This document shows positions 619 to 32,374 of a stretch of DNA of 64,000 bases, piece by piece. A program made the translations under genes and the position numbers. The notes beneath the pieces are model-generated. The model was not told where the DNA came from and ran no database searches. It saw only the letters and a program-made list of their open reading frames with translations. This DNA is from a bacterium (GTDB lineage Bacteria; Bacillota_I; Bacilli_A; RF39; UBA660). Within the stretch, counting starts at the first letter, position 1, and every line of letters starts with the position of its first letter. Location: positions 9,827 to 73,826 of the forward strand of contig CAVIUA010000048.1 in NCBI GenBank assembly GCA_963645945.1. The letters are read 5' to 3'.

Positions 619-1368
619 CTAATGAAGAATCTTTTTTACTTTAACATTAATAAATTCACCAATAGATTCATCTCTTTTTTCATATACTTCTTCTGATAAA
701 GTACTTAAAAACTCTGGCGAATTAGTACAATTCTTAACCCAGGCAGATAACTGTTTCTTATCTTGTGACGAAAAATCATTATCATACTGCATCATAAAAA
801 ACAACATCTTAGAAATAACAAAATTAAAAGTAGTATTATTTTTAGAAGCTAAATCTCCTGCAGAATATATCTGATATTTATCCATATCACACAAATGTAA
901 AAAGTCATCTGTATATATATAACTACCTCTATTAACATCACTAACAAGTATTTTATTATTAGTTAAATTTTCAAAGTCTAAAGCAAGTTCAAGTATTGAA
1001 TCAAACAAGTCTGAACAAGTAAATTCCGTAGGTCTTTTATATAATGATGTTCCTTCTTTTTTAGGACTATTAACAGCATCTAAATAATTCATAACATACC
1101 CAATAAAATTTCCATCAACATCCGAAAAAGTATCAATTGGATTAGTTATTCTTCTTAAATATAAGTTTTCTAAAAAAGCAATTGCCTTATCATAAGTCAT
1201 TAATCCTTTTTTTCTACGCAATGTAACATCATACTTTAACACTTTTAATGCTTTATCGCCATGTCTAAAAACAATACCATCATGACCAGCGCCAATTTTT
1301 TCTAATACATGAATATTAGGAATGACCTCATGAGAACTATCTAAAATAATACTCTTAGCATTAGTCAT
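619..1368 (-). CDS. Protein-kinase-like fold protein, function unknown
   Basis: 249 aa. Gly-rich loop EKIGAGHDGIVF, lysine in KALKVLK, catalytic-loop-like VSDVNRGSYIY and DFG-like LCDMDKY occur in the order expected for a protein-kinase-like/APH fold. The ATG overlaps the stop of the upstream proS by 8 nt. Confidence 0.55.
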   Translation of the reverse strand: MTNAKSIILDSSHEVIPNIHVLEKIGAGHDGIVFRHGDKALKVLKYDVTLRRKKGLMTYDKAIAFLENLYLRRITNPIDTFSDVDGNFIGYVMNYLDAVNSPKKEGTSLYKRPTEFTCSDLFDSILELALDFENLTNNKILVSDVNRGSYIYTDDFLHLCDMDKYQIYSAGDLASKNNTTFNFVISKMLFFMMQYDNDFSSQDKKQLSAWVKNCTNSPEFLSTLSEEVYEKRDESIGEFINVKVKKILH

Positions 1369-3034
1369 TAAGTTTTTCTACTACCTCATCAAAACTTAAA
1401 TTAATACTTTCATTATCTGTTCTCTTTTTATATTCAACCATTCCCGCAACAGCACCCTTACCTACAACAATTCGATAAGGTATACCAATTAAATCGGTAT
1501 CTTTAAACTTAACACCAGCTCTTAAATCTCTATCATCCAACATAACTTCTACACCTAATGAAGTTAATTTATCATACAATTCATTAGCGACCTTAACTTG
1601 TACTTCATCTTTCATATTTACTATAATAATAGATGCTTTATATGGTGCAATTTCTTCTGGGAAAATAATACCATTATCATCATTGTTCTGTTCAACAATT
1701 GCAGCCATTATTCTACCTACTCCTATACCATAAGAACCCATAGTAACAACACATTCTTTATTATTCTCATCCAAATATGTTAAACCTAACTTTTCAGCAT
1801 ACTTAGTACCAAGTTTAAATAAATTACCAACTTCGATTCCTTTTTTGAAATATAATTTACCAGAACAACATGGACAAGTATCACCTTCTACAACATTACT
1901 AATATCTTCTGCCATATCATATTTAATATCAGAAACATTAGCGTTTATATAATGATATCCTCCTTTGTTAGCTCCACAACAGAAATTTTTCATAGTTAAA
2001 ATTTCTTTATCCACAACTACTTTACAATTTAAATCTACAGGACCAGTATAACCAGGAACAGCATTACTCTTACTAATTAACTCATCATCAGCAAATCCAA
2101 ACTCACTAACACCAAATAATTTACAAACTTTATTTTCATTTAATGATCTATCACCTCTTACAAAGAAAGCTACTAACTCTCCAGAAACATTCATAAGTAA
2201 AGCTTTAACAGACTTTTTAACATCAAGTTTCAAGTAATTACATACATCTTCTATTGTTTCTTGATGAGGAGTTTCTACCATTTCCATTTTCTTTTCTTCT
2301 TCTTCACTAGGAATAATTGTATTACCAGCAACTTCCATATTAACAGCATAATCACATTTATCACATAAAACTAAAGTATCTTCACCAATATCAGTAACAG
2401 CTTGATATTCTTCAGACAAAGTACCACCCATAGCACCAGTATCAGCTTTAACAATTCTATATTCAAGACCAAGTCTATCATAAATATTATTATAAGCTTT
2501 CTTCATAACAGCGTAACTTTCATCAAGTCCAGCTTCATCTTTATCAAAAGAATAAGCATCTTTCATAATAAATTCTCTAACTCTAATAAGTCCAAATCTT
2601 GGTCTAGTCTCATCTCTAAACTTATCAGCTTGTTGATACAAAGTAAAATGTAAATCTTTGTAACTTTGTACCATACTCTTAGCCGCAATAGTAAATAACT
2701 CTTCATGAGTAGGTCCAAGTACATATGGTTTCTCATATCTATCATTTAAATTAAACATATCATTACCAAATGCTTCAGTTCTACCGCATGTATCATATAC
2801 TTCTCTAGGTATCAAAGAAGGCATTAATAACTCTTGAGCACCAGCTTTATCCATTTCATCTTTTACAATATAACGAATCTTATCAAGAACTCTAAGTCCC
2901 AAAGGTAAAAACATATAAATACCAGAACTAACCTTCTTAATCATCCCAGAACGAACTAGCAAATTACCAGATTTACTATCCTCATCTTTTACATCTTCAC
3001 GTAATGTAAAAAAATAACTTTTACTTAATTTCAT
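1361..3034 (-). CDS. proS: Prolyl-tRNA synthetase, bacterial type with insertion (editing) domain
   Basis: 557 aa. Class II aaRS core with a long insertion between motifs 2 and 3 and a C-terminal anticodon-binding domain. Length and layout match bacterial-type ProRS. Confidence 0.92.
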   Translation of the reverse strand: MKLSKSYFFTLREDVKDEDSKSGNLLVRSGMIKKVSSGIYMFLPLGLRVLDKIRYIVKDEMDKAGAQELLMPSLIPREVYDTCGRTEAFGNDMFNLNDRYEKPYVLGPTHEELFTIAAKSMVQSYKDLHFTLYQQADKFRDETRPRFGLIRVREFIMKDAYSFDKDEAGLDESYAVMKKAYNNIYDRLGLEYRIVKADTGAMGGTLSEEYQAVTDIGEDTLVLCDKCDYAVNMEVAGNTIIPSEEEEKKMEMVETPHQETIEDVCNYLKLDVKKSVKALLMNVSGELVAFFVRGDRSLNENKVCKLFGVSEFGFADDELISKSNAVPGYTGPVDLNCKVVVDKEILTMKNFCCGANKGGYHYINANVSDIKYDMAEDISNVVEGDTCPCCSGKLYFKKGIEVGNLFKLGTKYAEKLGLTYLDENNKECVVTMGSYGIGVGRIMAAIVEQNNDDNGIIFPEEIAPYKASIIIVNMKDEVQVKVANELYDKLTSLGVEVMLDDRDLRAGVKFKDTDLIGIPYRIVVGKGAVAGMVEYKKRTDNESINLSFDEVVEKLND

Positions 3035-3046
3035 AAAAACACTTCC

Positions 3047-4468
3047 TTAATATTGAATTCCCCAAATAACATGATGTTTTGCTTCAGCACCACAAACAAC
3101 ACATTTTCCATCAATTAAATCATCATCAACAATACAACGAGACTTACAACCTTTTATTTCTTTTACTTTAAGTTCACACTCTTTTTTACCACACCAATCA
3201 GCATGAATAAATCCTGGTTGAGTATTAAGAATATTTTCCATCTCATTCAAATTATGTGCCTCAAATGTTAATCTATCTCTTCTCTCTACCGCTCTATTAT
3301 ACATATCTTTCTGAATTGTTTCTAATAATTCTTTAACGTACGAAAGAAGATTAATATCACTAGATTCTACTATTTTTTCCCTAGTATCTCTTCTAACAAA
3401 TGTAATATTATTATTTGAAAAATCTCTCTTACCAATTTCAATTCTCAATGGTATTCCATTAACTTCTGCTTCTGCAAATTTAAAACCTGGACTTCTATCA
3501 GTTTTATCCATATAAGAAGTAATAAAATTATCATTTAATATTTTATTGTATTCTTCACATTTCTTAAGTACTTCTTCATCGTTTCCAACTGGTATAATAA
3601 CTACCTGTTTAGGAGCAATTCTAGGTGGCAAAACTAAACCATAATCATCACCATGAACCATTATCAAACATCCTATCATTCTAGTAGTACTACCCCATGA
3701 AGTTTGATATACATATTCCTGTTTATTTTCTTTATTTAAAAACTTAACGTCATAAGCCTCTGCAAATTTTTGTCCAAAATAATGTGAAGTACCATCTTGT
3801 AAAACAACACCATTATACATTAAAGCTTCATTAGTTAAAGTATACTCCGCTCCAGCGAATTTTTCTTTTTCAGTTTTTCTGCCGACTATCGAAGGAACTG
3901 CTAATACTTCATGATGAAACCATTTATATACCTCAACCATTCTTTTTGTTTCTTCTTCAGCCTCACTACTTGTACTATGAATTGTATGACCTTCTTGCCA
4001 TAATATTTCTCTATCTCTCAAAAAAGGTCTAGTTTCCTTTTCCCAACGAACAATATTACACCATTGATTATAAAGTTTAGGTAAATCTCTATATGATTTA
4101 ACATGAGTTCTATAATAATCACAAAATAAAGTCTCACTGGTTGGTCTAACACATAATCTCTCTTCTAATTGTTTTTCTCCTCCATGTGTAACCCAGGCAA
4201 CTTCTGGCGCAAATCCTTCAACAAGTTCAGTTTCTTTTCTCAATAAATTTTCTGGTATCAATAAAGGCAACTTAACATTAGTATGACCAAGTTCTTTAAA
4301 TTTTTTATCAAGAATTTCTTCTATCTTCTCCCATATTGCATAACCATTAGGTTCTAAAACAGGACAACCCTTAACAGAAGAATAATCAATTAATTTAGCT
4401 GCTCTTAAAATATCAGTATACCATTTAGCAAAATCAACATTTCTACTAGTAATAGCTTCATTTTTCAT
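3047..4468 (-). CDS. proS: Prolyl-tRNA synthetase, archaeal/eukaryote-like type (no insertion domain)
   Basis: Start trimmed to ATG 4468 (MKNEAITSRNVDFAKWY...) with an AGGAGG RBS. 473 aa, no INS domain, and a Cys-rich C-terminal extension ending VIWGIQY as in the archaeal-like ProRS class. The 18 extra N-terminal codons in the track are the translated T-box terminator. Confidence 0.9.
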   Translation of the reverse strand: MKNEAITSRNVDFAKWYTDILRAAKLIDYSSVKGCPVLEPNGYAIWEKIEEILDKKFKELGHTNVKLPLLIPENLLRKETELVEGFAPEVAWVTHGGEKQLEERLCVRPTSETLFCDYYRTHVKSYRDLPKLYNQWCNIVRWEKETRPFLRDREILWQEGHTIHSTSSEAEEETKRMVEVYKWFHHEVLAVPSIVGRKTEKEKFAGAEYTLTNEALMYNGVVLQDGTSHYFGQKFAEAYDVKFLNKENKQEYVYQTSWGSTTRMIGCLIMVHGDDYGLVLPPRIAPKQVVIIPVGNDEEVLKKCEEYNKILNDNFITSYMDKTDRSPGFKFAEAEVNGIPLRIEIGKRDFSNNNITFVRRDTREKIVESSDINLLSYVKELLETIQKDMYNRAVERRDRLTFEAHNLNEMENILNTQPGFIHADWCGKKECELKVKEIKGCKSRCIVDDDLIDGKCVVCGAEAKHHVIWGIQY

Positions 4469-4482
4469 AAAAACTCCTCCTA

Positions 4483-4690
4483 AAATAAAAAGGATGATAC
4501 CTATAAGGAGTGCTAGTAGCACGGTACCATCCTTTATTTAACTCAAAATTTATAACGGTGCATAACACCGGAAGTAAAAACTTCTTCAAGAAAGGTAGGA
4601 ATTATATTAGATTATAATTAAGTTCACACTATCCTTAACTCACTATCTATAAGAGCTAATATAATTATGGTCTTTCCAATGAATTTAAAA
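4483..4690 (-). promoter_or_regulatory. T-box leader (probable proline specifier CCU) with terminator/antiterminator
   Basis: Minus strand reads AAATAAAGGATGGTACCGTGCTACTAGCACTCCTTATAGGTATCATCCTTTTTATTTT. The T-box core is GGATGGTACCGTG (consensus GGGTGGTACCGCG). An alternative terminator stem AAAGGATGGTACC / GGTATCATCCTTT is followed by a T-run. The upstream stem-I-like segment (AGCTCTTATAGATAGTGAG ... AATTCCTACC) contains CCU followed by A as candidate specifier. Confidence 0.8.
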
Positions 4691-4698
4691 CTGATAAT

Positions 4699-4727
4699 AT
4701 TCTATTATTTTTTTATAAAAATGTCAA
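4699..4727 (-). promoter_or_regulatory. Sigma-A type promoter for the T-box/proS operon
   Basis: Minus strand TTGACA - 17 nt - TAGAAT, ending a few nt before the leader begins. Confidence 0.5.
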
Positions 4728-4849
4728 TAATAACTAGCTAAGTTCTAAAATAAATATAGGAGCTAAAACAATCATACATTTATCATAATACAGCATTGAA
4801 AATTATTACATAATTATAAGTGAAAAAACTCAGTCCACCTAAACTCAAA

Positions 4850-5611
4850 CTATTTAAAATTCAATCCAATTTCATACGGAAATAAAATTGATAAGTTAAC
4901 TGGTTCCTCTGTGAAAATTATTCTTTTTGAATGAGCTATCATAAAGCCAAATTCAAACATTGTACCTCTACCAACAATTCCTTTAGGATTACAGACTACA
5001 ATAGCATCTGCTTTTTTAAATTTGTTCATATGATCCAACTTATGACGCCACGCATCTCTTTCGTTTTCAAGTTCTTGTCCTTCTAACAAAATGAAGTCCG
5101 TCCCAAGTGTTTCTTCGACAATTTTTTCAGTCCATGGGCTTAACACCTCAATATTATGTTTTTTCATAATATTCATAACTTCACCGATTTCCTTCATATA
5201 TTGTTGAAAACTACCACAAACAACTACTGATCTAAACTCTTGTTTCACCAAACCTTCAATTATATTATTATTAACACTATTTTTTAAATAAAAATCTTCA
5301 AGACTTTTTTCTAAAACATTAAGATATAAACCAAAAGTAGTATAAAATCGTATTATCAATTGTTGTTTTTCTTCCAAAGAAAAACTCTCAAACACACCAG
5401 TTGCAAACAATCTAGTATTTTTGTTATTGATTTCATATCCATTATCCTTAAGGCTATTAATTATTCTATCAATCTTTCTAAACAACTCATCATTGACATA
5501 TGTCTCATTAAAAAATATATCACATGTTTTCAACAATGTTAATTTAGTAGACAAGGCATAGATAACTGTTTTATTTGTATCGAAGTGAATTAGTATTTTT
5601 TCATCTTGCAT
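4850..5611 (-). CDS. Two-domain protein with a C-terminal nucleoside 2-deoxyribosyltransferase-like domain
   Basis: Start set to ATG 5611, with RBS AGGAAGG 9 nt upstream. The C-terminal ~125 aa (VVVCGSF...DAIVVCNPKGIVGRGTMFEFGFMIAHSKRIIF) fit the Rossmann-like deoxyribosyltransferase/LOG-like fold, including the G-T-x-x-E motif. The N-terminal ~125 aa are unassigned. Confidence 0.5.
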   Translation of the reverse strand: MQDEKILIHFDTNKTVIYALSTKLTLLKTCDIFFNETYVNDELFRKIDRIINSLKDNGYEINNKNTRLFATGVFESFSLEEKQQLIIRFYTTFGLYLNVLEKSLEDFYLKNSVNNNIIEGLVKQEFRSVVVCGSFQQYMKEIGEVMNIMKKHNIEVLSPWTEKIVEETLGTDFILLEGQELENERDAWRHKLDHMNKFKKADAIVVCNPKGIVGRGTMFEFGFMIAHSKRIIFTEEPVNLSILFPYEIGLNFK

Positions 5612-6329
5612 ATATAACATCCTTCCTATTTTTTTTCAAAGCATCAAGATATTTTTTTAAATATAAATCTTTATTTTTAGAATTATATTGCATTATAAAT
5701 CTTGGATGTTCCAAAGGAATAATTTCTTCAAAAAAATTATATTTCCTATTTAGTTTTAATAAATATTCATAGTTTTTGCCAGAGCCAATGCAATAACACA
5801 CAGAAGTATCTATATCAAATTTTAGTATTTCATTAATAGATTCAAGTATATATTTATCAAATTTTTCTTCATAATGTTTTATTTCATAATAATTACAGTT
5901 TACCAGATTACCTTTAGAATTGACTTTTGCTATTCCCAAAGGAAATACAAAATTCATATAAAAATCATTATAAAATTTTTCACATCCACCATATTGCTCT
6001 ATAACATCATAAAGAAAATTTGAAGATGATTTATTAACATAAAAATCATCTATAAATATACCCGTTTCTTTTTGCAAATGAACTGCATCTTCAAAGGGAA
6101 TTCCTGTAACGGCGGATGCTCTCCTAGCTGGATTACTTCCTAGTATTAATCTCCTTTTATTATTGTCATTATAAAACCTATCATAAAATTTCTTAGTAAT
6201 AAGTTGGACTTGCTCTTTATGTTCATCATTATAAGGATTTAATATTTTATAATCATCAAATGGTTCAATTTCGATTTTAGCTAAGTTATCACAATAATTT
6301 AAAATTTTATCTGAGTTTACTGTATTCAA
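5601..6329 (-). CDS. Uracil-DNA-glycosylase-superfamily-like protein (DUF4918-like)
   Basis: 242 aa. LILGSNPARRASAVTGIPFED and PLEHPRF resemble UDG-superfamily motif A (G-x-x-P-G type) and motif B (H-P-S type). The assignment is from memory of the family, not searched. The stop overlaps the next gene's start by 11 nt. Confidence 0.45.
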   Translation of the reverse strand: MNTVNSDKILNYCDNLAKIEIEPFDDYKILNPYNDEHKEQVQLITKKFYDRFYNDNNKRRLILGSNPARRASAVTGIPFEDAVHLQKETGIFIDDFYVNKSSSNFLYDVIEQYGGCEKFYNDFYMNFVFPLGIAKVNSKGNLVNCNYYEIKHYEEKFDKYILESINEILKFDIDTSVCYCIGSGKNYEYLLKLNRKYNFFEEIIPLEHPRFIMQYNSKNKDLYLKKYLDALKKNRKDVIYAR

Positions 6330-6331
6330 TA

Positions 6332-7597
6332 TTATACCACCTTACTGTTTTGATTCTTATTAACTTTTGCACTAATATATATTTCTCCATTTGTCGGAGT
6401 TAATTCAATATCAACAAAATTCAAATCTAGCAATATATCTAATAAATTTCTAAACATATCTAACCCACGATACAAATCAACAAAATCCAATCCAGGAATT
6501 ATAATACCAGGAATAATTTTTTTCTCTTTTGTATCTAAAAAACCATTTGATATTGATATTATTATAACAGCATTATTCTTTAGAACTCTATAGGCTTCTT
6601 TAAGAGCTTGTTTTACATCAAAAAATGATGAGTTATATGTTCTTAGAGATACATATAAATCATAACTGTTATCTGTTAGTTCATGTAAATTTTCAGCTCT
6701 CTCCTGAATTATTTGAGAAGCCGGAATTGCTTTTTTAACTTTCTTTAATCCATTAGGTGCGATATCAACAAATGTTATATTGGCACAATTAAAAAACAAT
6801 TCACGTGCTTCATTGCCACCACCAACACCAACATTCAATATATTAATTTCATTCAGCGATTTATTATTTGTTTTATTATAAATATCATTAAATACTTTAC
6901 TCCAATTTGTATTAACAGATCTAATATCATTAGCGTAATTATATGCGGAGTATTTATGATCAAATGCATCAGATAATATACTAGTTATTAATTTGTAAAG
7001 CTTTGTCCCTGATATATTAAATTTTTTTGATATATAAGCAGATAGTTTTTCAACCTGTTTTTGTTGTAAAATTTCTTCAAATTCTAGTTTTATTCCATAT
7101 AAATCTAACTTTTCTTTTAAAAAGCGACTTATTCTATTACTATAATAATATTCACTATATTTTATATTTTGTTTACTTTCTTTATACAAATTATAGTTTT
7201 GCTTAAATATATTTTCTTGTAATTCATCATTAAATCTAAAAATATTTTTGTTATTTAAAACTGGATCATTATCCAAATAGCAATTCAATTTAGGATCAGG
7301 AAGTCCTATAAAAATATTTTCAACTTCAATTGTACTTAATAACTTATTTAAGTCAAATTCTTCTTTATCATTTAATGTATTAATTGTTAAATATAAATTT
7401 TCGATTTTTGTAATTTTTTTATTTTTTAATTTTATTATTAAATTATCTGCCCAAGCGCAATCTCCATTATTAGTACTAGAATGTTCTATTAATTGATCAT
7501 TATTTACAACTAACGCTGAAACTCTAATTAATTCACTATCTATTTTATCTGCAATTTTAATAGCATACTTCATCCAATAGTAATTATTATTTGTCAT
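6332..7597 (-). CDS. Fusion of a degenerate RibD/CMP-deaminase-like domain and a class I SAM-dependent methyltransferase
   Basis: 421 aa. The N-terminal ~140 aa follow the deaminase-fold pattern (YWMKYAIKIADK, LYLTINT, IFIGLPDP), but the H-x-E and C-x-x-C zinc ligands are missing. The C-terminal half has methyltransferase motif I ILNVGVGGGNEA and post-I FVDIAP. Confidence 0.55.
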   Translation of the reverse strand: MTNNNYYWMKYAIKIADKIDSELIRVSALVVNNDQLIEHSSTNNGDCAWADNLIIKLKNKKITKIENLYLTINTLNDKEEFDLNKLLSTIEVENIFIGLPDPKLNCYLDNDPVLNNKNIFRFNDELQENIFKQNYNLYKESKQNIKYSEYYYSNRISRFLKEKLDLYGIKLEFEEILQQKQVEKLSAYISKKFNISGTKLYKLITSILSDAFDHKYSAYNYANDIRSVNTNWSKVFNDIYNKTNNKSLNEINILNVGVGGGNEARELFFNCANITFVDIAPNGLKKVKKAIPASQIIQERAENLHELTDNSYDLYVSLRTYNSSFFDVKQALKEAYRVLKNNAVIIISISNGFLDTKEKKIIPGIIIPGLDFVDLYRGLDMFRNLLDILLDLNFVDIELTPTNGEIYISAKVNKNQNSKVV

Positions 7598-7620
7598 TTT
7601 TAAATGTCACCTTTCTTTTT

Positions 7621-8265
7621 CTAACCTAAGTCGTCAAAACTGTTGGACAATGCCCCTTTTGATATCGCTTCCCAAAAATAAACTGAAACTATAGTAGAAT
7701 ATGGCATCCAATCAGAAAAATATTTTTCTACGTCTTGGTTAGAAGGCAAGTCTTCAAGATCATACATCCATTTTAATACTCTTTTAATAGTATAATCACC
7801 TTTAGAAAGAACATTTTCACGGCCTAATGAAAATATTAAATACATTTCTACTGTCCAATTACCAATTCCTTTTATTTTTGTTAGCTCATTTCTGATTTCT
7901 TGATTAGTGAGCTTTTTAACAGCATTAAGATCAAATTGATTATTTAATATAGCACAAGAGAAATTTTTAATATATGTAATTTTTTGTTTACAAATACCAA
8001 AAGATCTTAATTCATCCTCATTAATAATATTCAATGTTTCAGGTGAAATATCTTGATATTTTTCACATAATTTTTTCCAAATAGATTCACGGGTTTTATC
8101 ACTTATCTGTTGTCCTATAATATATTTTACAATGCATTTAAAGTCATCATCCTCAATTGGTATAGAACAAGATCTAATATACTTTATTAGTTTACCTAAT
8201 TTTTCATCAGAATTTATTAAAAATTGAACTTGTTTATTATTTAAATTATATTTTTTTACTTTCAT
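7621..8265 (-). CDS. HhH-GPD DNA glycosylase (AlkA / 3-methyladenine DNA glycosylase II-like)
   Basis: 214 aa. IIGQQIS, helix-hairpin-helix LTKIKGIGNWTVEMYLIF, and the downstream Asp region SKGDYTIKRV. Confidence 0.75.
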   Translation of the reverse strand: MKVKKYNLNNKQVQFLINSDEKLGKLIKYIRSCSIPIEDDDFKCIVKYIIGQQISDKTRESIWKKLCEKYQDISPETLNIINEDELRSFGICKQKITYIKNFSCAILNNQFDLNAVKKLTNQEIRNELTKIKGIGNWTVEMYLIFSLGRENVLSKGDYTIKRVLKWMYDLEDLPSNQDVEKYFSDWMPYSTIVSVYFWEAISKGALSNSFDDLG

Positions 8266-8268
8266 AAA

Positions 8269-8826
8269 TTATTTATTATTAATCTGTTCTAATACGATAC
8301 TTTCTAATATTCTCTTAAAAATAGACCAAGAAACTTCTTTTTCTGTCAACCCATCATAATTATTATTAATTCTTGTTATTATTTCATCTTTAGAAAAATA
8401 TTTTGCATCAGATACTTCTTCTTTCTGTAATACTAAATCATTTATATTAACATCTTTTGTAATTAAATAACATTCGTCATAGTGATTATTAATATAACCA
8501 TTTTTATTATATCGTGATGTAGTACCTACAAGATATTTTATATCATCATCACTTATATCAATTCCTAGTTCTTCCCTGCATTCTCTTATTAGTGCTTGAC
8601 GGCCAAATTCTCCTGCATTAACATGTCCTCCTATAGTAACATCCCATTTATTTGGCCACAGTTTTTTATTTGCACTTCTTTTTTGTAATAAGACATTAAA
8701 ATCTTTATCAACTATAAAAGCATAAACAGCCCTATGCCATAATCCATTTGTATGACATTCATCTCTAGTAGCAACTTTACCAGTAAATTCTCCTAATTCA
8801 TTAAGAACATCAAATTTTTCGTCCAT
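8269..8826 (-). CDS. Nudix hydrolase
   Basis: 185 aa with Nudix box GGHVNAGEFGRQALIRECREELGI. The ATG overlaps the LysR stop (TAATG). Confidence 0.8.
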   Translation of the reverse strand: MDEKFDVLNELGEFTGKVATRDECHTNGLWHRAVYAFIVDKDFNVLLQKRSANKKLWPNKWDVTIGGHVNAGEFGRQALIRECREELGIDISDDDIKYLVGTTSRYNKNGYINNHYDECYLITKDVNINDLVLQKEEVSDAKYFSKDEIITRINNNYDGLTEKEVSWSIFKRILESIVLEQINNK

Positions 8827-9725
8827 TATTTACCTCCATCTTTCCCGTTATTTAGTAATTCATTTTCTATAAATAGTTTTGCTATACTTGTCATATATTT
8901 ACGTCTACAAATTAAATTAATCTCTATTTTAGGTAATTCCTCCGCTATCTCAATTATTTGAATATTATCTTCATCAGATAGACTTGAATTGGTCTTTACA
9001 ACATAACCTATACCAGCATTATTTTTGATTGCATTAATAATTAATTCTTCTGTCGTAAATTCTATCATAGGTTCAAACTCTAGACTATGTTCAATAAAAC
9101 AAGTATTAAGATTTTTTCTTAAAGAACTTCTGGCAGAGGGAAGAATCAAAAATTGATCTTTTAAATCTTCCAAACAACAAAATTTTTCCTTATTTTTAGT
9201 AGATTTTATGAAGCACGTATCCAAATTTACTATAGGCGTTATTTCAATATTGTTGTAGATATTTTCTATAGGAGACGTATCAATTACAAAATCTAAGTTA
9301 CCCTTAACTAGTTCATCTATAAGATCTCTAGTAGGCATATCAACAAATTTCATTTTAACATTTGGATGTTGCTGTCTAAAATTAATTATTTTTTTCATAA
9401 GATAATTCATAACAATATGTGACTGTGCTCCAATAACAATATTTGTATCTTCTACATTACTCATCGATTTAAGCATTCTTTGACATGCTGCTAACAAATC
9501 GCTAGATTCTTTAATATATTTATATAAAACTTGACCATAGGGAGTCAATGAAACCCCATTATTTGCTCTATTAAATAAAACGACCCCCAACTCTTCCTCT
9601 AGTTTTGCAATACTTCGACTTATGGCAGGTTGTGTTATATAGAGTTTATTGGCGGCTTTTAAAAAACTGTTACAATTAGCAACCTCATAAAAAATTTTCA
9701 AAAAATTTAGGTTCAAATTGTCCAC
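8826..9725 (-). CDS. LysR-family transcriptional regulator
   Basis: N-terminal HTH (FLKAANKLYITQPAISRSIAKLEEELGVVLF) plus a LysR substrate-binding domain. The track start 9734 (GTG) lies inside the RBS AGAGGTGG, so GTG at 9725 is the more likely start. Confidence 0.85.
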   Translation of the reverse strand: MDNLNLNFLKIFYEVANCNSFLKAANKLYITQPAISRSIAKLEEELGVVLFNRANNGVSLTPYGQVLYKYIKESSDLLAACQRMLKSMSNVEDTNIVIGAQSHIVMNYLMKKIINFRQQHPNVKMKFVDMPTRDLIDELVKGNLDFVIDTSPIENIYNNIEITPIVNLDTCFIKSTKNKEKFCCLEDLKDQFLILPSARSSLRKNLNTCFIEHSLEFEPMIEFTTEELIINAIKNNAGIGYVVKTNSSLSDEDNIQIIEIAEELPKIEINLICRRKYMTSIAKLFIENELLNNGKDGGK

Positions 9726-9804
9726 AACAACCACCTCTAATTAATATTATATATAATATTATCTATAAAAACAATTAATAAATTAAGTGTCAGTTATAAC
9801 TTTT

Positions 9805-9822
9805 AGTAATAGCATTATTACT
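9805..9822. promoter_or_regulatory. Inverted repeat in the divergent control region, candidate LysR operator
   Basis: AGTAATA-gcat-TATTACT perfect 7-bp inverted repeat inside the 230-nt intergenic region between the lysR gene and the plus-strand operon. It has T-N(11-12)-A-like geometry. Confidence 0.3.
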
Positions 9823-9964
9823 TTTAAAACTAATTATAAAATTAAGTAATATCTGTATAAATAAATTTAACACGTATAACTTCTGATTATACATAATATT
9901 AAAAAAAGCATTTCCAATTTTAAGAGAAAAATATTAAATTGTTATTAGAAAGGAGAAAATTTAT

Positions 9965-10606
9965 ATGGCAATAACGACAATTTTTGGAATCAATGGTGTT
10001 GGTAAAGACACTGTTGCTAATTCATTAAGAACTAATAATCCAGATTTATTAGTTACAAGCATTTCTAGAATGCTTATGTATATTTTAGGTATAACAAAAA
10101 CCTATGATGTTAACGAAAAGGTTTGTGAGGAGCAATATAAAATGCTTGAAAGTGTTCCTCAGGAAAAAATGATAAAGATTGAAAATACTGATTACAAAGA
10201 TATGTTAGATGAAATCGCTTCATCTAAAGAAGACTTAATAATGTTATCTCACTTAATATCAGCTTTAAGGCATGGAGATAAAATTCAATATTTAACTGAT
10301 AGAACTACACCAGATTGGTATGTCAAGCTAAATCAAGCACTAATTCAATTGGTTGCACCTTCAGATACAGTGAGTTATCGAAGAAAAAATGATGTAAACA
10401 GAAAAAGGGAAACTAGTATAGAAGAAATTGAATATCATCAATCATTATGTACTAATGAGTGGGAAAGAATCAAACGTGTAAATCCGGATACTGCAAATAG
10501 AATGTTTATAGTTAACAATATTAACTTAAGTGATGCAACAAACGAAATCGAACAAATAATGCATGATCAAGCCAAGGTATTAAGAAAGATTAGAAGTGAT
10601 AAGTAA
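9965..10606 (+). CDS. P-loop NTPase, nucleoside/nucleotide-kinase-like
   Basis: 213 aa. Walker A at the extreme N-terminus (IFGINGVGKDTV) and small size, as in NMP/nucleoside kinases. RBS AAAGGAGAAA upstream. Confidence 0.5.
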   Translation: MAITTIFGINGVGKDTVANSLRTNNPDLLVTSISRMLMYILGITKTYDVNEKVCEEQYKMLESVPQEKMIKIENTDYKDMLDEIASSKEDLIMLSHLISALRHGDKIQYLTDRTTPDWYVKLNQALIQLVAPSDTVSYRRKNDVNRKRETSIEEIEYHQSLCTNEWERIKRVNPDTANRMFIVNNINLSDATNEIEQIMHDQAKVLRKIRSDK

Positions 10607-11211
10607 TGAAAAAGATAGCAGAACATTTAGTAAAGACAGGTTGCTATATAAGAACAGCCGATAGCAAATTCGATACAACTCATGGTAATCAAGTGCTTGC
10701 ATATTTATGCTGTAGACTAGCCATAAGCAATGTAGAAGTTAGAGAAGAAATAATAGAAGAGCTAACCAGAACCATATATGATAATTATGGTTCCAATATA
10801 ACTGTAGCTGGAATGGCTACAGCTGGTATTCCTTGGGCAGCCGGTGTAGCTGAAAAATTAAGTATTCCATTACTATATATAAGAAGCAAACCAAAAGAAT
10901 ATGGATTAAAAAGTTTAATAGAAGGCAACTTACAATATGCTACAGAACAAATTATTGTTATGGATGATGTCTTATATACAGGACAAACAGCGCAAATAGG
11001 AATTGATGCTTTACAAGAAAAAGGATTAGAGGTTGTTGGAATTTCAACATTAGCTAAACTTTCAGAAAAAGCAGAAAAAAAATTTAAAAATAACAGTATT
11101 GATGTTAGTTATTTAACTGACTATGATGAAATTCTAGATGTTGCAACAGAAGAAAAAATAATAAATGACAAAGAAAAAGTTAAAATGTTAAGTTTTTATA
11201 GAAGTAATTAG
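10606..11211 (+). CDS. Type I phosphoribosyltransferase (orotate-PRTase-like)
   Basis: 201 aa. PRPP-binding motif IIVMDDVLYTGQTA and upstream GMATAGIPWAAGVAEKLSIPLLYIRSKPKEYG, as in PyrE-like PRTases. The start overlaps the previous stop (TAATG). Confidence 0.75.
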   Translation: MKKIAEHLVKTGCYIRTADSKFDTTHGNQVLAYLCCRLAISNVEVREEIIEELTRTIYDNYGSNITVAGMATAGIPWAAGVAEKLSIPLLYIRSKPKEYGLKSLIEGNLQYATEQIIVMDDVLYTGQTAQIGIDALQEKGLEVVGISTLAKLSEKAEKKFKNNSIDVSYLTDYDEILDVATEEKIINDKEKVKMLSFYRSN

Positions 11212-11227
11212 AAAGAGGTGAAAAAAT

Positions 11228-11872
11228 ATGAACGAAAAAATAGTAATTACTACTACAAATAAAAATAAAGTTGGACGAATACAAAAACTGCTGAAAAATG
11301 CAAACTTTGAAGTAGTTGGATTATCTGAAATAGTTAAGGGAAAAATAGAAGAACCAGAAGAAACAGCTGAAAGCGGAATAGATAACGCAATTGAAAAGGC
11401 CATTTATTACGTCAACTATCTACCAGAAGACACAATAGTTTTATCCCAAGATGATACAATTGAGTTAATTGGAGTTCACGAAGAAGATGAACCAAAAGGG
11501 CACATAAAAGAACCAGTTATTAAAAAATATGGTAAATTTACCGACGAACTGGCAGCTAAATACTATTCTGAACTAGCCAGTAAATATGGTGGAACAATCC
11601 CCATGATATTTAAATATGGACACGCTGTGGCGGTTATTGAAACAACAGATAGAATGAGAAAAAGAGTTTTATCAGCTGAATCAAAACTAGAGGCAAGACT
11701 AGTTAATAAAATATACCAACTTAATAAATGTCCTGGATATTTTCTCGCAGCATTAATGGAAGTACAAGTAAATAATGAATGGCTTCCATATAATGATTTA
11801 ACAGAAACTCAATTAATTGATTTGGACATAGATTTGAAAAAATCAATAATATCACTATTAAAAGAAATATAG
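11228..11872 (+). CDS. Ham1/ITPase-like (non-canonical NTP pyrophosphatase-like) protein
   Basis: 214 aa. KIVITTTNKNKVGRIQKLL (T-x-N-x-x-K), EEPEETAESGIDNAIEKA and VLSQDDTIEL parallel the conserved Ham1 blocks. The C-terminal part is divergent. Confidence 0.5.
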   Translation: MNEKIVITTTNKNKVGRIQKLLKNANFEVVGLSEIVKGKIEEPEETAESGIDNAIEKAIYYVNYLPEDTIVLSQDDTIELIGVHEEDEPKGHIKEPVIKKYGKFTDELAAKYYSELASKYGGTIPMIFKYGHAVAVIETTDRMRKRVLSAESKLEARLVNKIYQLNKCPGYFLAALMEVQVNNEWLPYNDLTETQLIDLDIDLKKSIISLLKEI

Positions 11873-11884
11873 GAGAAATGAATT

Positions 11885-12862
11885 GTGAAAGAAAAGAAAA
11901 AAATAATTGTTGGATTAATAATCTTAATTATCGCAGTAATTGCATTTTTTATGATTTTTAATTCTAAGTCTAAAAATAAATTAGAAAAAACATCATTAAG
12001 ATTGAAATGGGTATGTCAGGCCCAGTTTGCTGGATATTATTCAGCACTAAAAGAAGGATATTACAAAGATGTAGGTTTATCAGTAACAATCGATCCAGCA
12101 GGGCCTAATATTTCACCAATTCAATCGGTTACTAGTGGAGTAAATGAATTTGGTATAGCTGGAGCAGAACAGATAATTACTGCGATTGATAACAAGGTTC
12201 CAATTGTTGCTATTGCAGTAATCTACAGAGAAACACCTGAGGCACTTGTTTCAAAAAAAGAATTAAATATTAAAACGCCAAAAGATCTAGAAGGGAAAAC
12301 AGTTGGAGTAGTTTATGAAAATGATGAAAACTTATATAGACTATTTTTAAAGAAAAACAAAGTTGATGAAAATAACATAAAGGAAGTTCCAGCAATAACA
12401 GGAATCAGTCAAGTAATGACTGATCAAGTTGATGCAAAAATGGCATATGAAATGAACGATGCTATTTTACTTGAACTTGAGGGAGAAAAAGTCAACCTAT
12501 TAAGATTTAGAGATTATGGTGTTAAAGTATATGCGGACACAATATTTACCACAAAAGAAATGGTAGAAAAACATCCAGATAAAGTTAAAAAATTCCTTAA
12601 AGCCTCCTTAAAAGGATGGAATTATGCAATTGAAAACCCTGAAAAGTCAGTTTCACAACTAATAGAAATAAATCCAACATTAAAATATGAACATCAATTA
12701 GGATATTTAAAAGGAAGTATTCCATTAATTATGACGGATGAAAAAATAGGAGTATCCGATTCTAAAATATGGGAAAATATGATAGATAATTTATATGAAA
12801 ATAAAATGATTAAGAAAAAAATCAAAGCATCTGAAGTATATACAAACGAGTTTTTGAAATAA
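11885..12862 (+). CDS. ABC transporter substrate-binding protein, NMT1/THI5-like (NitT/TauT family), N-terminally membrane anchored
   Basis: 325 aa. GTG start with an AGGAGA RBS. One N-terminal TM segment with no lipobox Cys. LRLKWVCQAQFAGYYSALKEGYYKDVGL is typical of NMT1/THI5-type binding proteins. Confidence 0.8.
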   Translation: MKEKKKIIVGLIILIIAVIAFFMIFNSKSKNKLEKTSLRLKWVCQAQFAGYYSALKEGYYKDVGLSVTIDPAGPNISPIQSVTSGVNEFGIAGAEQIITAIDNKVPIVAIAVIYRETPEALVSKKELNIKTPKDLEGKTVGVVYENDENLYRLFLKKNKVDENNIKEVPAITGISQVMTDQVDAKMAYEMNDAILLELEGEKVNLLRFRDYGVKVYADTIFTTKEMVEKHPDKVKKFLKASLKGWNYAIENPEKSVSQLIEINPTLKYEHQLGYLKGSIPLIMTDEKIGVSDSKIWENMIDNLYENKMIKKKIKASEVYTNEFLK

Positions 12863-12863
12863 T

Positions 12864-13604
12864 ATGAGTTATATTAAAATAGAAAAATTATCTAAATCAT
12901 ACAAAGAAAAGAATATATTTCAAGAATTTTCTTTAAATATAGAAAAGGGAAGTTTTATTTCTTTTGTTGGACCATTTGGATGCGGGAAAACAACTTTACT
13001 AAAACTACTAGCAGGTATAGAAAACATTGATACTGGCCAAATACTTATAAATAATCAAACTCCAGAAACTTTAAAAAAAGATAAAAAAATGGGGTATGTA
13101 TTTCAAGAACCGTTATTATTACCATGGAAAAATGTTGAAGAAAATATTCGGTTACCTTTGGAATTATCACATAAGAATAATTTTAAAAAAGTTGATCAAT
13201 TATTAAAAACGGTCGGCCTAGACGAAAAGAAAAATAATTATCCTAGAGAATTATCTGGTGGTATGCAACAAATAGTTTCTATCTTAAGAGCTGTTATTAA
13301 TAATCCTGCAGTACTATTACTAGACGAGCCCTTATCAGCAATTGATGAAATTAATAGAAATAAACTACAAGATATTTTAATCAACTTACATAAAGCAAAT
13401 AAGCAAACAACTATCCTTGTAACACACTCTATTCATGAAGCCGTTTATTTATCTGATAAAGTATATATTTTGGGAGACTCTCCAGTACAAATAATTGATT
13501 GTATAAAGCCAAAATATCCTAGAATGAAAAGATACAAAAACAGTTTGGAAACACTAAAAACAGTAACAAAAATTAGAAAAAAACTAGAAAAAGCGGTGAA
13601 ATAA
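12864..13604 (+). CDS. ABC transporter ATP-binding protein
   Basis: Walker A GPFGCGKTT, signature LSGGMQQ, Walker B LLLDEP. Confidence 0.9.
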   Translation: MSYIKIEKLSKSYKEKNIFQEFSLNIEKGSFISFVGPFGCGKTTLLKLLAGIENIDTGQILINNQTPETLKKDKKMGYVFQEPLLLPWKNVEENIRLPLELSHKNNFKKVDQLLKTVGLDEKKNNYPRELSGGMQQIVSILRAVINNPAVLLLDEPLSAIDEINRNKLQDILINLHKANKQTTILVTHSIHEAVYLSDKVYILGDSPVQIIDCIKPKYPRMKRYKNSLETLKTVTKIRKKLEKAVK

Positions 13605-13606
13605 TT

Positions 13607-14329
13607 ATGAAAAAGAATCTCATTGGTCTTCTAACAATTATAATCTTTTGGTTATTAATAACATTTATTTTTAATCCGCCTTCTTACTTGTTTCCAAGTT
13701 TAATTAATACTGTAGCCGACTTTATCTCAAATTATCAATTATATATACATCATACTTTTATTACCGTAATAGAAATAGTTCTTGGATTTATAGTTGCGTT
13801 ATTTATAGGATTATCATTATCACTAGTGGCATTATATTATCAAAAAACTGAAACCATTTTTACATTTATATCAATTATACTAAAAACCGTTCCCATAATT
13901 GCAATAGCTCCATTATTAGTATTATGGTTTGGAAATGGTTTAGGATCTAAAGTAGCAGCAGTAGCTATCACAAGTTTTATTCCGATTTTTGTAAATACAT
14001 TATCAGGAGCCAAAATTATTCTAAATAGATATAAAAATATTATTGGAATATATTCCTTAAATAAATTACAAATCAATAAAATAATTTTATTGCATGGAAT
14101 ATCAGAGTATATTATTACATCCTTAAAAATCACTAGTTCACTAGCTGTTGTCGGTGCACTAGTTAGTGAATTCATTAGTGCAAATAAAGGTTTAGGATAC
14201 TTAATAATTTCAAATTATTATTCAATGAATATTGCAGGTGTATTTGTATGTATCATGATATCAGGTCTATTGGGAATATTAATATATTCAGGATGTAACT
14301 ATTTAGAACAGCGCTATAGTTATCAATAA
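13607..14329 (+). CDS. ABC transporter permease (BPD/NitT-TauT type)
   Basis: 240 aa with about six hydrophobic segments. It directly follows the ATPase. Confidence 0.85.
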   Translation: MKKNLIGLLTIIIFWLLITFIFNPPSYLFPSLINTVADFISNYQLYIHHTFITVIEIVLGFIVALFIGLSLSLVALYYQKTETIFTFISIILKTVPIIAIAPLLVLWFGNGLGSKVAAVAITSFIPIFVNTLSGAKIILNRYKNIIGIYSLNKLQINKIILLHGISEYIITSLKITSSLAVVGALVSEFISANKGLGYLIISNYYSMNIAGVFVCIMISGLLGILIYSGCNYLEQRYSYQ

Positions 14330-14370
14330 ATAAATGTAATAAAAACATTAGAAAGAGTATATACAGCTTT

Positions 14371-14422
14371 AAGCGAGTAAGCATTCACAACAAATGCTAT
14401 CATTACTCGCTTCTTTTATTTT
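14371..14422 (+). terminator. Terminator of the plus-strand operon
   Basis: AAGCGAGTAAGCATT...AATGCTATCATTACTCGCTT imperfect long hairpin followed by CTTTTATTTT. Confidence 0.5.
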
Positions 14423-14484
14423 GAAAATACCAAATAATATAATGACAAAAAAATCTAGATCATCAACATACAAAATATAACATT

Positions 14485-14513
14485 TAAAAACCTCTAGAAA
14501 TATCTAAAGGTTT
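14485..14513 (-). terminator. Terminator after eno
   Basis: Minus strand AAACCTTTAGA-tattt-CTAGAGGTTT followed by TTAAA. The stem is imperfect. Confidence 0.4.
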
Positions 14514-14556
14514 ATCTATATTTAAATTATGATAGTTTTGAATTTATCTGATTATG

Positions 14557-17119
<2,563 letters not shown>

Positions 17120-17227
17120 TTTATCACCAATATAATTATACTACGAAAAATGCCTTTTAACTACTATAAATTATTGATAAAAACTAAAAATATATGCTAT
17201 AATAAATAAAAGATGGAGAGGGAAAAT

Positions 17228-18469
17228 ATGAAATTAGTAACATTAAATCAACAACAATTTAATAAGTACACTAGTAGTCATAGATATAGAAGCTATTATC
17301 AAACATCAGCATATGGTCTTTCTATGTTAAAACTAGGATATAATGTTCACTATTTTGGTATAGTTGATGAAACAAACTCTCTAATAGGCGCAACCATGAT
17401 ACTTTATAAAGAAGTATTTATGAATAATAAAATAGCCTATGCACCAAGAGGAATATTATTTGATTACTCTGATTCTAAAAAAGTAAAAGAACTTGCTGAA
17501 TGCTTAAGAAATTTGTTAGGAAAACAAGGATTTATGTTACTAAGAATGGACCCGTATATTCCAATAAGTATCCATAGTAATGATGGAAACTTAATAAATA
17601 TGAACAATCAAGAAAGTATAATTTTAGAAAATCTTGCTACTGCAAAATTTGAATATAAAGGAAAAAATTTATATTTTGAAAATGAAAAACCTAGATGGGA
17701 AGCACTAGTACTTTTAAATAAAAATGAAGAAGTATTATTTGAAAGCTTTGATAAAAGGACTAGAAACAAAATTAGAAGAGCCAGAAATATTGGTATTGAA
17801 GTATATAATGATACAACAAAAGATATAAAAGATCTTTATGAATTTATCGGTAAGAAAGATAAAAAACCAATAAAATATTATGAAGCTTTAGTTAAAAACT
17901 TTGGTGAAAATATTGATATATATTATGCAAAAATAAATACTGAAACTTTCATTATAAATAGTAGAAAAATGTATGAAAACGAACTACTAAACAATGAACA
18001 ACTAGCAGAAAGAATTCAACAGTATGCACCAAATGATAAAGAAAGACAAAATACTTTAAATAAAAAAATGGAGTCTGACAAATTAGTCAGTTCATACAAA
18101 AACAATATGTTACTAGCAACAGAATTATTAAAAAAGCATCCTGAAGGAATTTTAATTGGCGGAGCTCTTGTTATTAAATATGATAACGCCGCATATATTG
18201 TTAGCGATGGCTACAATGAAAAATTTTCTTCACTTAACGCTAGCTATCTAATAAAATGGCAAATGATTTCAGACTATAATCGACAAGGACTAAAATATTT
18301 AAATATGAACGCCGTTGTTGGAGAGTTTGAGAAAAAAAATCAATACTCTGGATTAAATGAAATGAAACTTGGCTTTAACACGATAGTAACTGAGTATATA
18401 GGTGAATTTGATTTAATACTAAATAATTTTACATATAATTTATTTAAAAGTTTTAATAAAGGAAAATAA
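17228..18469 (+). CDS. FemAB-family peptidoglycan interpeptide-bridge peptidyltransferase
   Basis: Start trimmed to ATG 17228 (MKLVTLNQQQF), with RBS GGAGAGG. Two GNAT-like halves with a helical insertion (NELLNNEQLAERIQQ...), and the YAPRG and RFK-like regions typical of FemX/MurM. Confidence 0.8.
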   Translation: MKLVTLNQQQFNKYTSSHRYRSYYQTSAYGLSMLKLGYNVHYFGIVDETNSLIGATMILYKEVFMNNKIAYAPRGILFDYSDSKKVKELAECLRNLLGKQGFMLLRMDPYIPISIHSNDGNLINMNNQESIILENLATAKFEYKGKNLYFENEKPRWEALVLLNKNEEVLFESFDKRTRNKIRRARNIGIEVYNDTTKDIKDLYEFIGKKDKKPIKYYEALVKNFGENIDIYYAKINTETFIINSRKMYENELLNNEQLAERIQQYAPNDKERQNTLNKKMESDKLVSSYKNNMLLATELLKKHPEGILIGGALVIKYDNAAYIVSDGYNEKFSSLNASYLIKWQMISDYNRQGLKYLNMNAVVGEFEKKNQYSGLNEMKLGFNTIVTEYIGEFDLILNNFTYNLFKSFNKGK

Positions 18470-31908: not shown

Positions 31909-31973
31909 ACATTTTTTATACTTTTTTACAACATTTTTACACACTAGTTGTTTAAAAAGAAAAAAGAAGTTAA

Positions 31974-32342
31974 TTACTTAACTTCTACAGTAGCTCCAGC
32001 TTCTTCTAACTTAGCTTTAATTTCATCAGCTTCAGCTTTAGCAATGTTTTCTTTAACAACACCGTTTGAATCAACGATATCTTTAGATTCTTTTAATCCT
32101 AAACCAGTAATTTCTTTAACAACTTTAATAACAGCAACTTTAGCAGCTCCAGCATCAGCTATTGAAACAGTAACTGTACTTGGACCTTCTTCAGCAGCAG
32201 CTCCAGCAGCTGGTGCAGCAACAGCAACAGCACTTGGATCTACACCAAATTCTTCCTTCATTGCATCTACTAATTCTTTAATTTCTAATAAGTTCATTTC
32301 TTTTAAACTACTGATAAATTCATCTCTTGTTAATTTAGCCAT
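31974..32342 (-). CDS. rplL: 50S ribosomal protein L7/L12
   Basis: 122 aa. Ala-rich hinge and C-terminal [16 protein letters not shown]. Confidence 0.95.
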
Positions 32343-32374
32343 TTTTCTTTTCCTCCCTATATTTTATATTTTAA

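Follow-up and report, generated by a model that had tools for sequence, protein, structure and literature searches.

We analysed a 64,000-nt stretch of DNA (the window; G+C 28.6%) from a bacterium of the RF39 lineage of Bacilli (UBA660; contig CAVIUA010000048.1), in which twelve genes lie on either side of the control region of a LysR-type regulator. On the minus strand lysR is followed by a cassette of five enzymes: a Nudix hydrolase, an AlkA-type DNA glycosylase, a deaminase-like/methyltransferase fusion, a SMUG2-type DNA glycosylase of the uracil-DNA glycosylase (UDG) superfamily and a protein with a nucleoside deoxyribosyltransferase (NDT)/DNPH1-like domain. The plus arm, read in the other direction, encodes a nucleoside monophosphate (NMP) kinase-like protein, a phosphoribosyltransferase (PRTase), a Ham1-like protein and the binding protein, ATPase and permease of an ATP-binding cassette (ABC) transporter (Table 1). 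We found that the two arms occur independently in other genomes, and the block thus joins, in this one lineage, two modules that already existed separately; it is not one co-evolved 12-gene pathway, and a single co-evolved regulon was not supported. The reading that we favour, with a probability of about 0.5, is a LysR divergon of these two modules in which a heterocyclic base would be imported and converted to its NMP and nucleoside diphosphate (NDP), while its ribo- or deoxyribonucleoside triphosphate ((d)NTP), deoxynucleoside monophosphate (dNMP) and DNA forms would be removed.

Two independent modules joined at a LysR gene

The 12-gene layout was found again in a relative, L001/L002 (loci in other genomes carry L numbers here, and proteins P numbers), at about 62-84% protein identity and between entirely different flanks. 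Among the relatives found by way of methyltransferase-fusion homologues L043 was the closest, with 71% identity in the methyltransferase and 84% in LysR (78% for the LysR of L001). There the lysR-cassette operon diverges from an SsuA/TauA-type ABC importer (5288-7655), a palindrome of the control region is kept between the two, and there is no kinase, PRTase or Ham1 gene. This importer was considered as an orthologue that would support a coupling of cassette and importer, and was rejected since its binding protein is unrelated, being of the SsuA/TauA type. We found lysR joined to the cassette operon only in the window's own Bacilli lineage.

At least four other gut Firmicute lineages had the six-gene plus arm but none of the minus-arm enzymes with it, and the order kinase, PRTase, Ham1-like protein, binding protein, ATPase and permease was common to the window, L001, L008, L012, L015 and L017. 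Elsewhere the arm usually adjoins a LysR gene and varying enzymes that act on nucleoside triphosphates (NTPs). In Clostridiales UBA8271 (L008 and L021-24) a CYTH gene lies downstream and LysR is fused to a MoaA-like radical S-adenosylmethionine (SAM) domain, in L008 as a 598-aa open reading frame (ORF; 8069-9865). Genes for CYTH-like, viperin-like radical SAM and LysR proteins precede the arm in L012-14 (L012 7331-9858); the viperin-like enzyme of L012 scored 156 bits against PADLOC pVip and 151.9 bits against the NCBIfam model, which has a cut-off of 180. LysR, methyltransferase, CYTH and HAD genes lie upstream in L015/16, and an HD/AAA_28 gene lies downstream. In L017/18/25 the arm has no LysR gene and stands between NAD-salvage genes and an NrtR-like gene; a pncA-pncB-Nudix-nadD/nadE block (4954-8945) and an NrtR-like Nudix/winged-helix regulator (14769-15590) bracket it in L017, and this position suggests that the arm may be connected with NAD or niacin metabolism there.

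Kinase and PRTase were fused in two lineages (P0205, 359 aa; L008 10001-11257, 418 aa), and these fusions, together with the six-gene synteny, reinforce a chain that would lead from importer through PRTase to NMP kinase. In two distant genomes of 42-46% G+C, kinase, PRTase and Ham1 genes lie with a methyltransferase gene and without a transporter (L006 6949-11025; L030 4986-9049); a gene for a VioC/TauD-like dioxygenase is also present in L006 and one for a DAO-family oxidoreductase in L030, and the arrangement looks biosynthetic rather than salvage. A methyltransferase theme across the plus-arm variants was considered and rejected, since the L006 and L030 enzymes are orthologous to each other and neither to the window fusion nor to the L015 enzyme. 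Between spoIIIAA and spoIIIAB, L026 carries Nudix and kinase-family genes (7749-9022) without a PRTase or Ham1 gene. A kinase-profile search of genome contigs returned four loci only, three of them distant kinases of the candidate phyla radiation without context. Solitary Ham1-like genes were seen outside such operons in L003 (10001-10645, 57% identity) and L005 (10001-10627, 45%), so this family is not restricted to the system described here.

Homologues of the methyltransferase fusion were widespread in gut Clostridia. They lie in cassettes of the five enzymes, arranged as in the window and 44-73% identical; L039-L042 retain at most a remnant of the Nudix gene. In the contexts examined, the Clostridial cassettes were accompanied neither by a LysR gene nor by an importer, a kinase, a PRTase or a Ham1 gene. 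The neighbours of these cassettes are genes for tyrosine integrases, large serine recombinases, type IV secretion systems (T4SS) and ParE. Furthermore, a 6.3-kb segment made up of a tyrosine integrase, the five-gene cassette and an alpha/beta-hydrolase was 99.9% identical in three unrelated flanks (L036, L037 and L038, about 5512-11802) and looks like a recently mobile integrative element. Scans of viral contigs for plus arm and cassette were essentially negative, and neither module was phage-borne there. One further protein (P0322, 633 aa) has the HhH-GPD glycosylase fused to the deaminase-like methyltransferase.

These comparisons make it unlikely that the block is one dedicated, co-evolved 12-gene regulon for the import, activation and sanitation of a single non-canonical base, as the original prediction had it. 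Part of that proposal stood: all 12 proteins belong to families that handle bases, nucleotides or DNA bases, lysR overlaps the first cassette gene, the arms share a control region with a conserved palindrome, and the complete layout recurs in L001 with different flanks. However, the arms travel separately, which is largely the outcome that the prediction had named as speaking against itself. The plus arm lacks the cassette in L008, L012, L015 and L017, the cassette lies on mobile elements without plus arm or LysR, and the lysR-cassette operon of L043 faces a different importer and has no kinase, PRTase or Ham1 gene beside it. Moreover, all three genomes with the lysR-cassette operon, two of which have the full layout, are close relatives, and their arrangement may go back to one ancestral event.

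Proteins of the plus arm and of the cassette

Family searches (Pfam, NCBIfam and PDB profiles) confirmed or sharpened every family call that had been made from the letters, and no window protein reached the NCBIfam equivalog-level cut-off for a characterised enzyme. In most of the loci compared the binding protein is the best-conserved plus-arm protein (65-81%). Its best PDB match was 4NMY (E 1.4e-37), which was deposited with thiamin bound (PMC10586155), and ThiY 3IX1 was matched with E 3e-18. The ThiXYZ importer of hydroxymethylpyrimidine and formylaminopyrimidine (HMP and FAMP) and the Clostridioides difficile protein 4NMY have the same NMT1/THI5 fold, with a cognate ABC ATPase and permease. 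The window importer differs from ThiXYZ in that no thiamin pyrophosphate (TPP) riboswitch or thi genes accompany it in the neighbourhoods examined, and in that it shares an operon with a PRTase, an NMP kinase and an ITPase-fold enzyme, none of which is used in thiamin salvage.

The PRTase has the type I motif for phosphoribosyl pyrophosphate (PRPP) and the catalytic-loop lysines of PyrE and of the one-step salvage enzymes Upp, Apt and Hpt, and its best matches were orotate phosphoribosyltransferases (OPRTs), among them that of Bacillus anthracis (E 6e-26). Both PyrE equivalogs scored below cut-off (NF001729, 96 bits against 245; TIGR00336, 79 bits against 106.8). Its family keeps the PRPP motif VMDDVLYTGQT and the flexible-loop segment RSKPKEYG, whereas the orotate hood, SG-K-SP-Y..DNR in Gram-positive OPRTs, is replaced by HGNQVLAYLCCR in the window PRTase and by P-AYLSCR family-wide, in an alignment (A5) that also has a row for E. 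coli PyrE. Unlike PyrE, the window enzyme is coupled, and in some lineages fused, to an NMP kinase of its own, and no pyrF gene is nearby.

For the kinase only weak Pfam matches were obtained (AAA_17/18), and the PDB matches of its family profile (A1), from 6pjw at E 5e-4 to 1kht at 9e-4, are likewise weak and superfamily-level only. The family and 6pjw, an archaeal adenylate kinase, have an RRxxDxxRxR...HQ segment in common. The adenylate-kinase-like P-loop (GxxGxGK), Arg35 of the NMP site and the lid arginines R139 and R140 are invariant, and D143 is conserved. In the Ham1-like protein the catalytic core (T9, T10, N11, K14, E45, K57, D75 and D76) is invariant in 21 sequences and corresponds to the N-terminal core of RdgB and ITPA (TxNxxK, Glu, Lys, DD). 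Alignment of the family profile (A2) with RdgB-type PDB structures covers the first 60-79 or so positions only; the C-terminal half has diverged, aligns to no RdgB or ITPA and contains a family-specific insert. The match to NF011397 reached 31 bits, under its cut-off of 234, and an exact-sequence look-up of the protein found no match. In contrast to RdgB and ITPA, it is encoded within an import and activation operon.

On the cassette side, the Nudix box GX5EX7REUXEEXGU was read intact in the translation of the first enzyme, whose nearest NCBIfam models were IDI and YfcD, both under cut-off. The HhH-GPD glycosylase matched the NCBIfam AlkA and MagIII models weakly, at family level only (AlkA 25.6 bits, cut-off 229); its hairpin GIGNWT (GIGxWT being invariant) has no catalytic lysine, and Asp157 is invariant. 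The methyltransferase fusion consists of a deaminase-like domain (about residues 1-135), a helical linker and the methyltransferase. The AlphaFold2 (AF2) model, with a mean confidence (pLDDT) of 88, shows the secondary-structure order of cytidine deaminases at the N-terminus, and 12 of 22 family members matched dCMP_cyt_deam_1 (PF00383; best E 8e-4). At the HAE and PCxxC positions, which were equated by eye in an alignment (A4) without a deaminase reference sequence, there is no conserved His or Cys, the consensus being SW and LTINT. The guess of a degenerate deaminase was thus borne out in that the fold order is kept and the zinc ligands are replaced, and the domain is predicted to be catalytically dead. 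Foldseek matched the fusion to generic class I methyltransferases only and so gave no clue to its substrate.

The UDG-like protein aligned over its full length (residues 7-235) with PDB 5H0J and 5H0K at E 1.6e-53. These two chains, which we take to be Pedobacter heparinus SMUG2 in its wild-type and G65Y forms, differ by one Gly-to-Tyr change in the NPGR motif. The window copy has motif 1 GSNPARR (GxNP) and motif 2 EHPRF (HP), and so retains the motif 1 Asn and the motif 2 His; the equivalent of Gly65 is Ala. In the mobile Clostridial copies motif 1 reads GSSPARR (L036 9277-10032, L039 9340-10095 and L041 9386-10093), as against GSNPARR in the window lineage, so that the Asn which usually positions the water is not strictly conserved; the catalytic His is invariant. 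Broad specificity is described for glycosylases of the SMUG2 class (PMC8307549).

The last cassette protein scored 25.7 bits with Pfam Nuc_deoxyrib_tr, short of the cut-off of 28.8. Its AF2 model (pLDDT 91) has an N-domain like domain I of Ppx/GppA and an NDT/DNPH1-like C-domain; in Foldseek the former superposed on Ppx/GppA with a root-mean-square deviation (rmsd) of 3-4 Å over about 120 columns and the latter on DNPH1 (4kxl) with 2.4 Å over 112 columns, 2a0k also being matched. The best PDB match of the family profile was the CMP N-glycosidase 4JEN (E 0.0026), aligned at GTxFExG, in which Glu223 is invariant in the family. The protein is probably a nucleotide N-glycosidase. In human cells DNPH1, which has the NDT fold, hydrolyses 5-hydroxymethyl-dUMP (hmdUMP) in the nucleotide pool and SMUG1 excises 5-hydroxymethyluracil (hmU) from DNA (PMC10603095). 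The cassette likewise pairs an NDT-fold N-glycosidase with a SMUG-type glycosylase, and the same pairing of pool-level with DNA-level removal is found in the dUTPase/UDG logic for uracil. It differs from DNPH1-SMUG1 in being clustered with Nudix, AlkA-type and deaminase-like/methyltransferase proteins and in being mobile.

We regard it as distinctly unlikely that the arms are unrelated neighbours, the plus arm serving uptake and salvage of a thiamin precursor such as HMP and the minus arm general repair of alkylated and deaminated bases. The nearest solved relatives of the binding protein bind thiamin (4NMY) and the thiamin pyrimidine FAMP (ThiY), and the cassette does contain AlkA-type and SMUG2-type glycosylases. 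CYTH-domain genes, named after CyaB and thiamine triphosphatase, also adjoin the plus arm elsewhere. However, neither a TPP riboswitch nor any other Rfam family was matched in window positions 4000-15000 (E up to 1) or in five to six plus-arm loci, a result that speaks against control by a TPP or a xanthine riboswitch; thiD, thiE, thiM and tenA were in none of the loci examined, and the known thiamin pathways have no role for a PRTase, an NMP kinase or an ITPase. Furthermore, NMT1-annotated genes of Proteobacteria lie under xanthine riboswitches and are linked to purines, not to thiamin (PMC7373994).

A model for the divergon

The locus has the features of a LysR-type divergon: a regulator with HTH_1 and LysR_substrate domains, a divergent operon and a T-N11-A dyad. 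When the control region was aligned between the window, L001 and L043, conserved blocks were found that include the palindrome GTATAA-N7-TTATAC, which is perfect in L043, degenerate in L001 and occurs once in the 64-kb window. It sits about 75 nt 5′ of the kinase ATG, roughly where a LysR recognition site is expected at an activated promoter. The control region also holds two 25-nt direct repeats, 40 nt apart. The shared control region with its palindrome makes co-regulation of both arms plausible in the window's Bacilli lineage; the LysR proteins encoded upstream of the plus arm in L008, L012 and L015 are 33-52% identical to that of the window.

From the gene content, motifs and synteny we infer a model for the order of reactions, the kind of base, the sugar specificity of the Ham1-like protein, the regulation and the functional coupling of the modules. 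The ThiY/thiamin-type binding protein and its ABC transporter would import a small N-heterocyclic base, which the OPRT-clade PRTase, with its changed base pocket, would join to PRPP to give a ribonucleoside 5′-monophosphate. The dedicated NMP kinase would phosphorylate this product to the diphosphate, and the ITPase-fold pyrophosphatase may hydrolyse a triphosphate, perhaps that of the deoxyribonucleoside, back to the monophosphate. In the cassette, the Nudix hydrolase and the NDT/DNPH1-fold N-glycosidase would clear forms in the nucleotide pool, and the AlkA-type and SMUG2-type glycosylases would excise the base from DNA. The methyltransferase may modify the base or its nucleotide, and the inactive deaminase-like domain fused to it may bind either. 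LysR would sense the base or its nucleotide and activate the import operon from the palindrome, and would also drive its own operon, the cassette included. The outcome would be a uracil-like regime in which the base is used at the ribonucleotide level and kept out of DNA. The presence of a dedicated kinase suggests that the cell needs the nucleotide as its di- or triphosphate, and the viperin-like, MoaA-like, CYTH, HD and Nudix enzymes that neighbour the plus arm elsewhere also point to use in these forms.

Hints of a pyrimidine come from the ThiY/thiamin-like binding protein, the OPRT clade of the PRTase, the dCMP-deaminase-like domain and the match to a CMP N-glycosidase. A purine is suggested by the ITPase fold and the AlkA type, and SMUG2 is active also on hypoxanthine and xanthine; the riboswitch-linked NMT1 genes of Proteobacteria mentioned above are purine-linked as well. 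Several points weigh against the two-module divergon. Nothing in these data singles out the base, and the pyrimidine and purine hints conflict. Encoded in the same operon, the kinase and the NTP pyrophosphatase would run a futile cycle unless their specificities differ. The cassette may be general repair cargo that landed behind lysR, and in L043 it stands beside an unrelated importer; the Ham1-like protein, which is also encoded by solitary genes, may be a general housekeeping enzyme. Finally, regulation at this locus is read from a sequence motif. A more specific version of the two-module model, in which the plus arm, with an NMP kinase and a (d)NTP pyrophosphatase of its own, would be PRPP-dependent salvage of a base that has no known PRTase (a 4-aminopyrimidine, say, such as cytosine or a 5-substituted cytosine) and the mobile cassette would exclude the base or its derivatives, such as deaminated or methylated forms, from DNA and the dNTP pool, is very unlikely as it stands; it would amount to a second uracil-like regime of 'RNA yes, DNA no'.

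We also considered a conflict system, in which the modules would make or police antiviral nucleotides or the cassette would attack modified phage DNA in the manner of glycosylase-based defences, and judged it highly improbable. The viperin-like radical SAM enzyme adjoins the LysR gene and the plus arm in L012, where its place beside a kinase-bearing operon resembles the viperin-CMPK2 pairing of an NTP-modifying radical SAM enzyme with a nucleotide kinase; in L008 LysR carries a fused MoaA-like radical SAM domain; and the cassette travels on integrase and serine-recombinase elements, near T4SS and ParE genes. However, neither a viperin nor an effector gene is present in the window cluster, which thus has no such pairing, and the L012 enzyme, under its NCBIfam cut-off, is tied to a LysR gene and an importer. 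PADLOC 2.0 gave weak or generic matches only for the window proteins (at most 40.3 bits, for the Nudix protein with PDC-S07, and 28.8 bits for the methyltransferase domain with mad2), and a PHROGs search of the same proteins found no informative match. In addition, a metabolite-type LysR and a nutrient-type ABC importer are atypical of defence, and neither module was on the viral contigs scanned. Scarcely credible is a system that would import a modified base and place it in DNA or RNA by an exchange reaction, which the original prediction had offered as an alternative: the NDT fold does include true base-exchanging transferases, and free-base import would fit an exchange reaction, but the 12 genes include no TGT/DpdA-type transglycosylase or other base-exchange enzyme, polymerase or dedicated insertion enzyme, both glycosylases retain the residues of hydrolytic excision, the NDT-like domain is nearest to the hydrolases DNPH1 and CMP N-glycosidase, and enzymes of the Nudix and Ham1 types serve to remove nucleotides, not to supply them.

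Gene order, surroundings and implications

All 12 predicted ORFs lie where the prediction had placed them (Table 1), and the predicted spacing was reproduced. The lysR/Nudix and kinase/PRTase pairs each share 1 nt in a TAATG junction, and the gaps in the minus arm are 3, 23 and 2 nt. The overlap of the NDT-like and UDG-like genes, given before as 11 nt, holds for the second ATG of the NDT-like gene (5611), which homologues prefer, and becomes 20 nt from the first ATG (5620). The terminator expected behind the plus arm was present as a hairpin followed by a U-tract. Minus-strand orientation was otherwise nearly uniform, as claimed: the only other plus-strand ORFs of at least 150 aa in the window lie at 17213-18469 and 31948-32415, the latter having 155 aa and overlapping a minus-strand ORF.

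Table 1. Features of the LysR-centred block, in window coordinates
Feature	Position	Strand	Match or remark
Two-domain Ppx/GppA-like and NDT/DNPH1-fold protein, 256 aa	4850-5620	-	Probable nucleotide N-glycosidase; likely start 5611
SMUG2-type UDG-superfamily DNA glycosylase	5601-6329	-	Pfam UDG 50.3 bits
Deaminase-like (predicted inactive)/class I SAM methyltransferase fusion, 421 aa	6332-7597	-	Methyltransf_11 55.7 bits, residues 254-347
AlkA-type monofunctional HhH-GPD DNA glycosylase	7621-8265	-	HhH-GPD 60.7 bits
Nudix hydrolase, start overlapping lysR stop codon	8269-8826	-	NUDIX 65 bits
LysR-type regulator, first gene of minus-strand operon	8826-9734	-	HTH_1 76 bits, LysR_substrate 67 bits
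Divergent control region, 230 nt	9735-9964	.	Aligned between window, L001 and L043
Palindrome GTATAA-N7-TTATAC, contains T-N11-A	9874-9892	.	Candidate LysR recognition site
NMP-kinase-like P-loop protein	9965-10606	+	P-loop GINGVGKDT; related to archaeal adenylate kinases
Type I PRTase, OPRT clade, altered base-binding hood	10606-11211	+	Pribosyltran 53.4 bits
Ham1/ITPase-fold NTP pyrophosphatase-like protein	11228-11872	+	Ham1p_like 32.8 bits, residues 5-78 only
Membrane-anchored NMT1/THI5-type substrate-binding protein	11885-12862	+	NMT1 187 bits
ABC transporter ATPase	12864-13604	+	ABC_tran 113.9 bits
ABC transporter permease	13607-14329	+	BPD_transp_1 62.1 bits
Intrinsic terminator hairpin and U-tract	14371-14412	+	Free energy (dG) -15.6 kcal/mol, z -3.84; closes plus arm

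Beyond the 12 genes, the cluster contains no ORF of at least 80 aa but one inside the permease gene, a 111-aa antisense ORF (13840-14175, minus strand) that is probably spurious. The block is flanked by housekeeping genes as stated before, with two prolyl-tRNA synthetase (ProRS) genes on one side and eno/murD on the other. The ProRS genes stand in tandem on the minus strand (1361-3034 and 3047-4522); one encodes a bacterial-type enzyme with an editing domain and the other an archaeal/eukaryotic-type enzyme with ProRS-C_1. No T-box or other Rfam match was found at the leader of the second ProRS gene within the 4000-15000 range searched.

The original prediction knew of no pathway with this gene set, and a literature search found none described for either module. 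Each component belongs to a known superfamily, and the modules are thus of known kinds, base salvage on the one hand and base excision with pool sanitation on the other, rather than a new category. The interest of the locus lies in a base specificity that is probably new, in the dedicated PRTase-kinase pair and in the mobile sanitation cassette. It also illustrates that what looks like a tidy functional super-operon can turn out to be independent modules placed side by side. Should the base activated by the plus arm be one that the standard salvage enzymes ignore, the arm would constitute a new nucleobase salvage pathway, present both in reduced-genome gut Bacilli that depend on scavenging and in Clostridia, and would provide a ligand for a large, poorly annotated branch of NMT1/THI5-type transporters. 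The cassette, in turn, is a compact and horizontally mobile package that joins base removal in the nucleotide pool with base removal from DNA, and the mobile elements that carry it may pass on, within the gut microbiota, the ability to tolerate a base-analogue drug or a genotoxic or mutagenic base.

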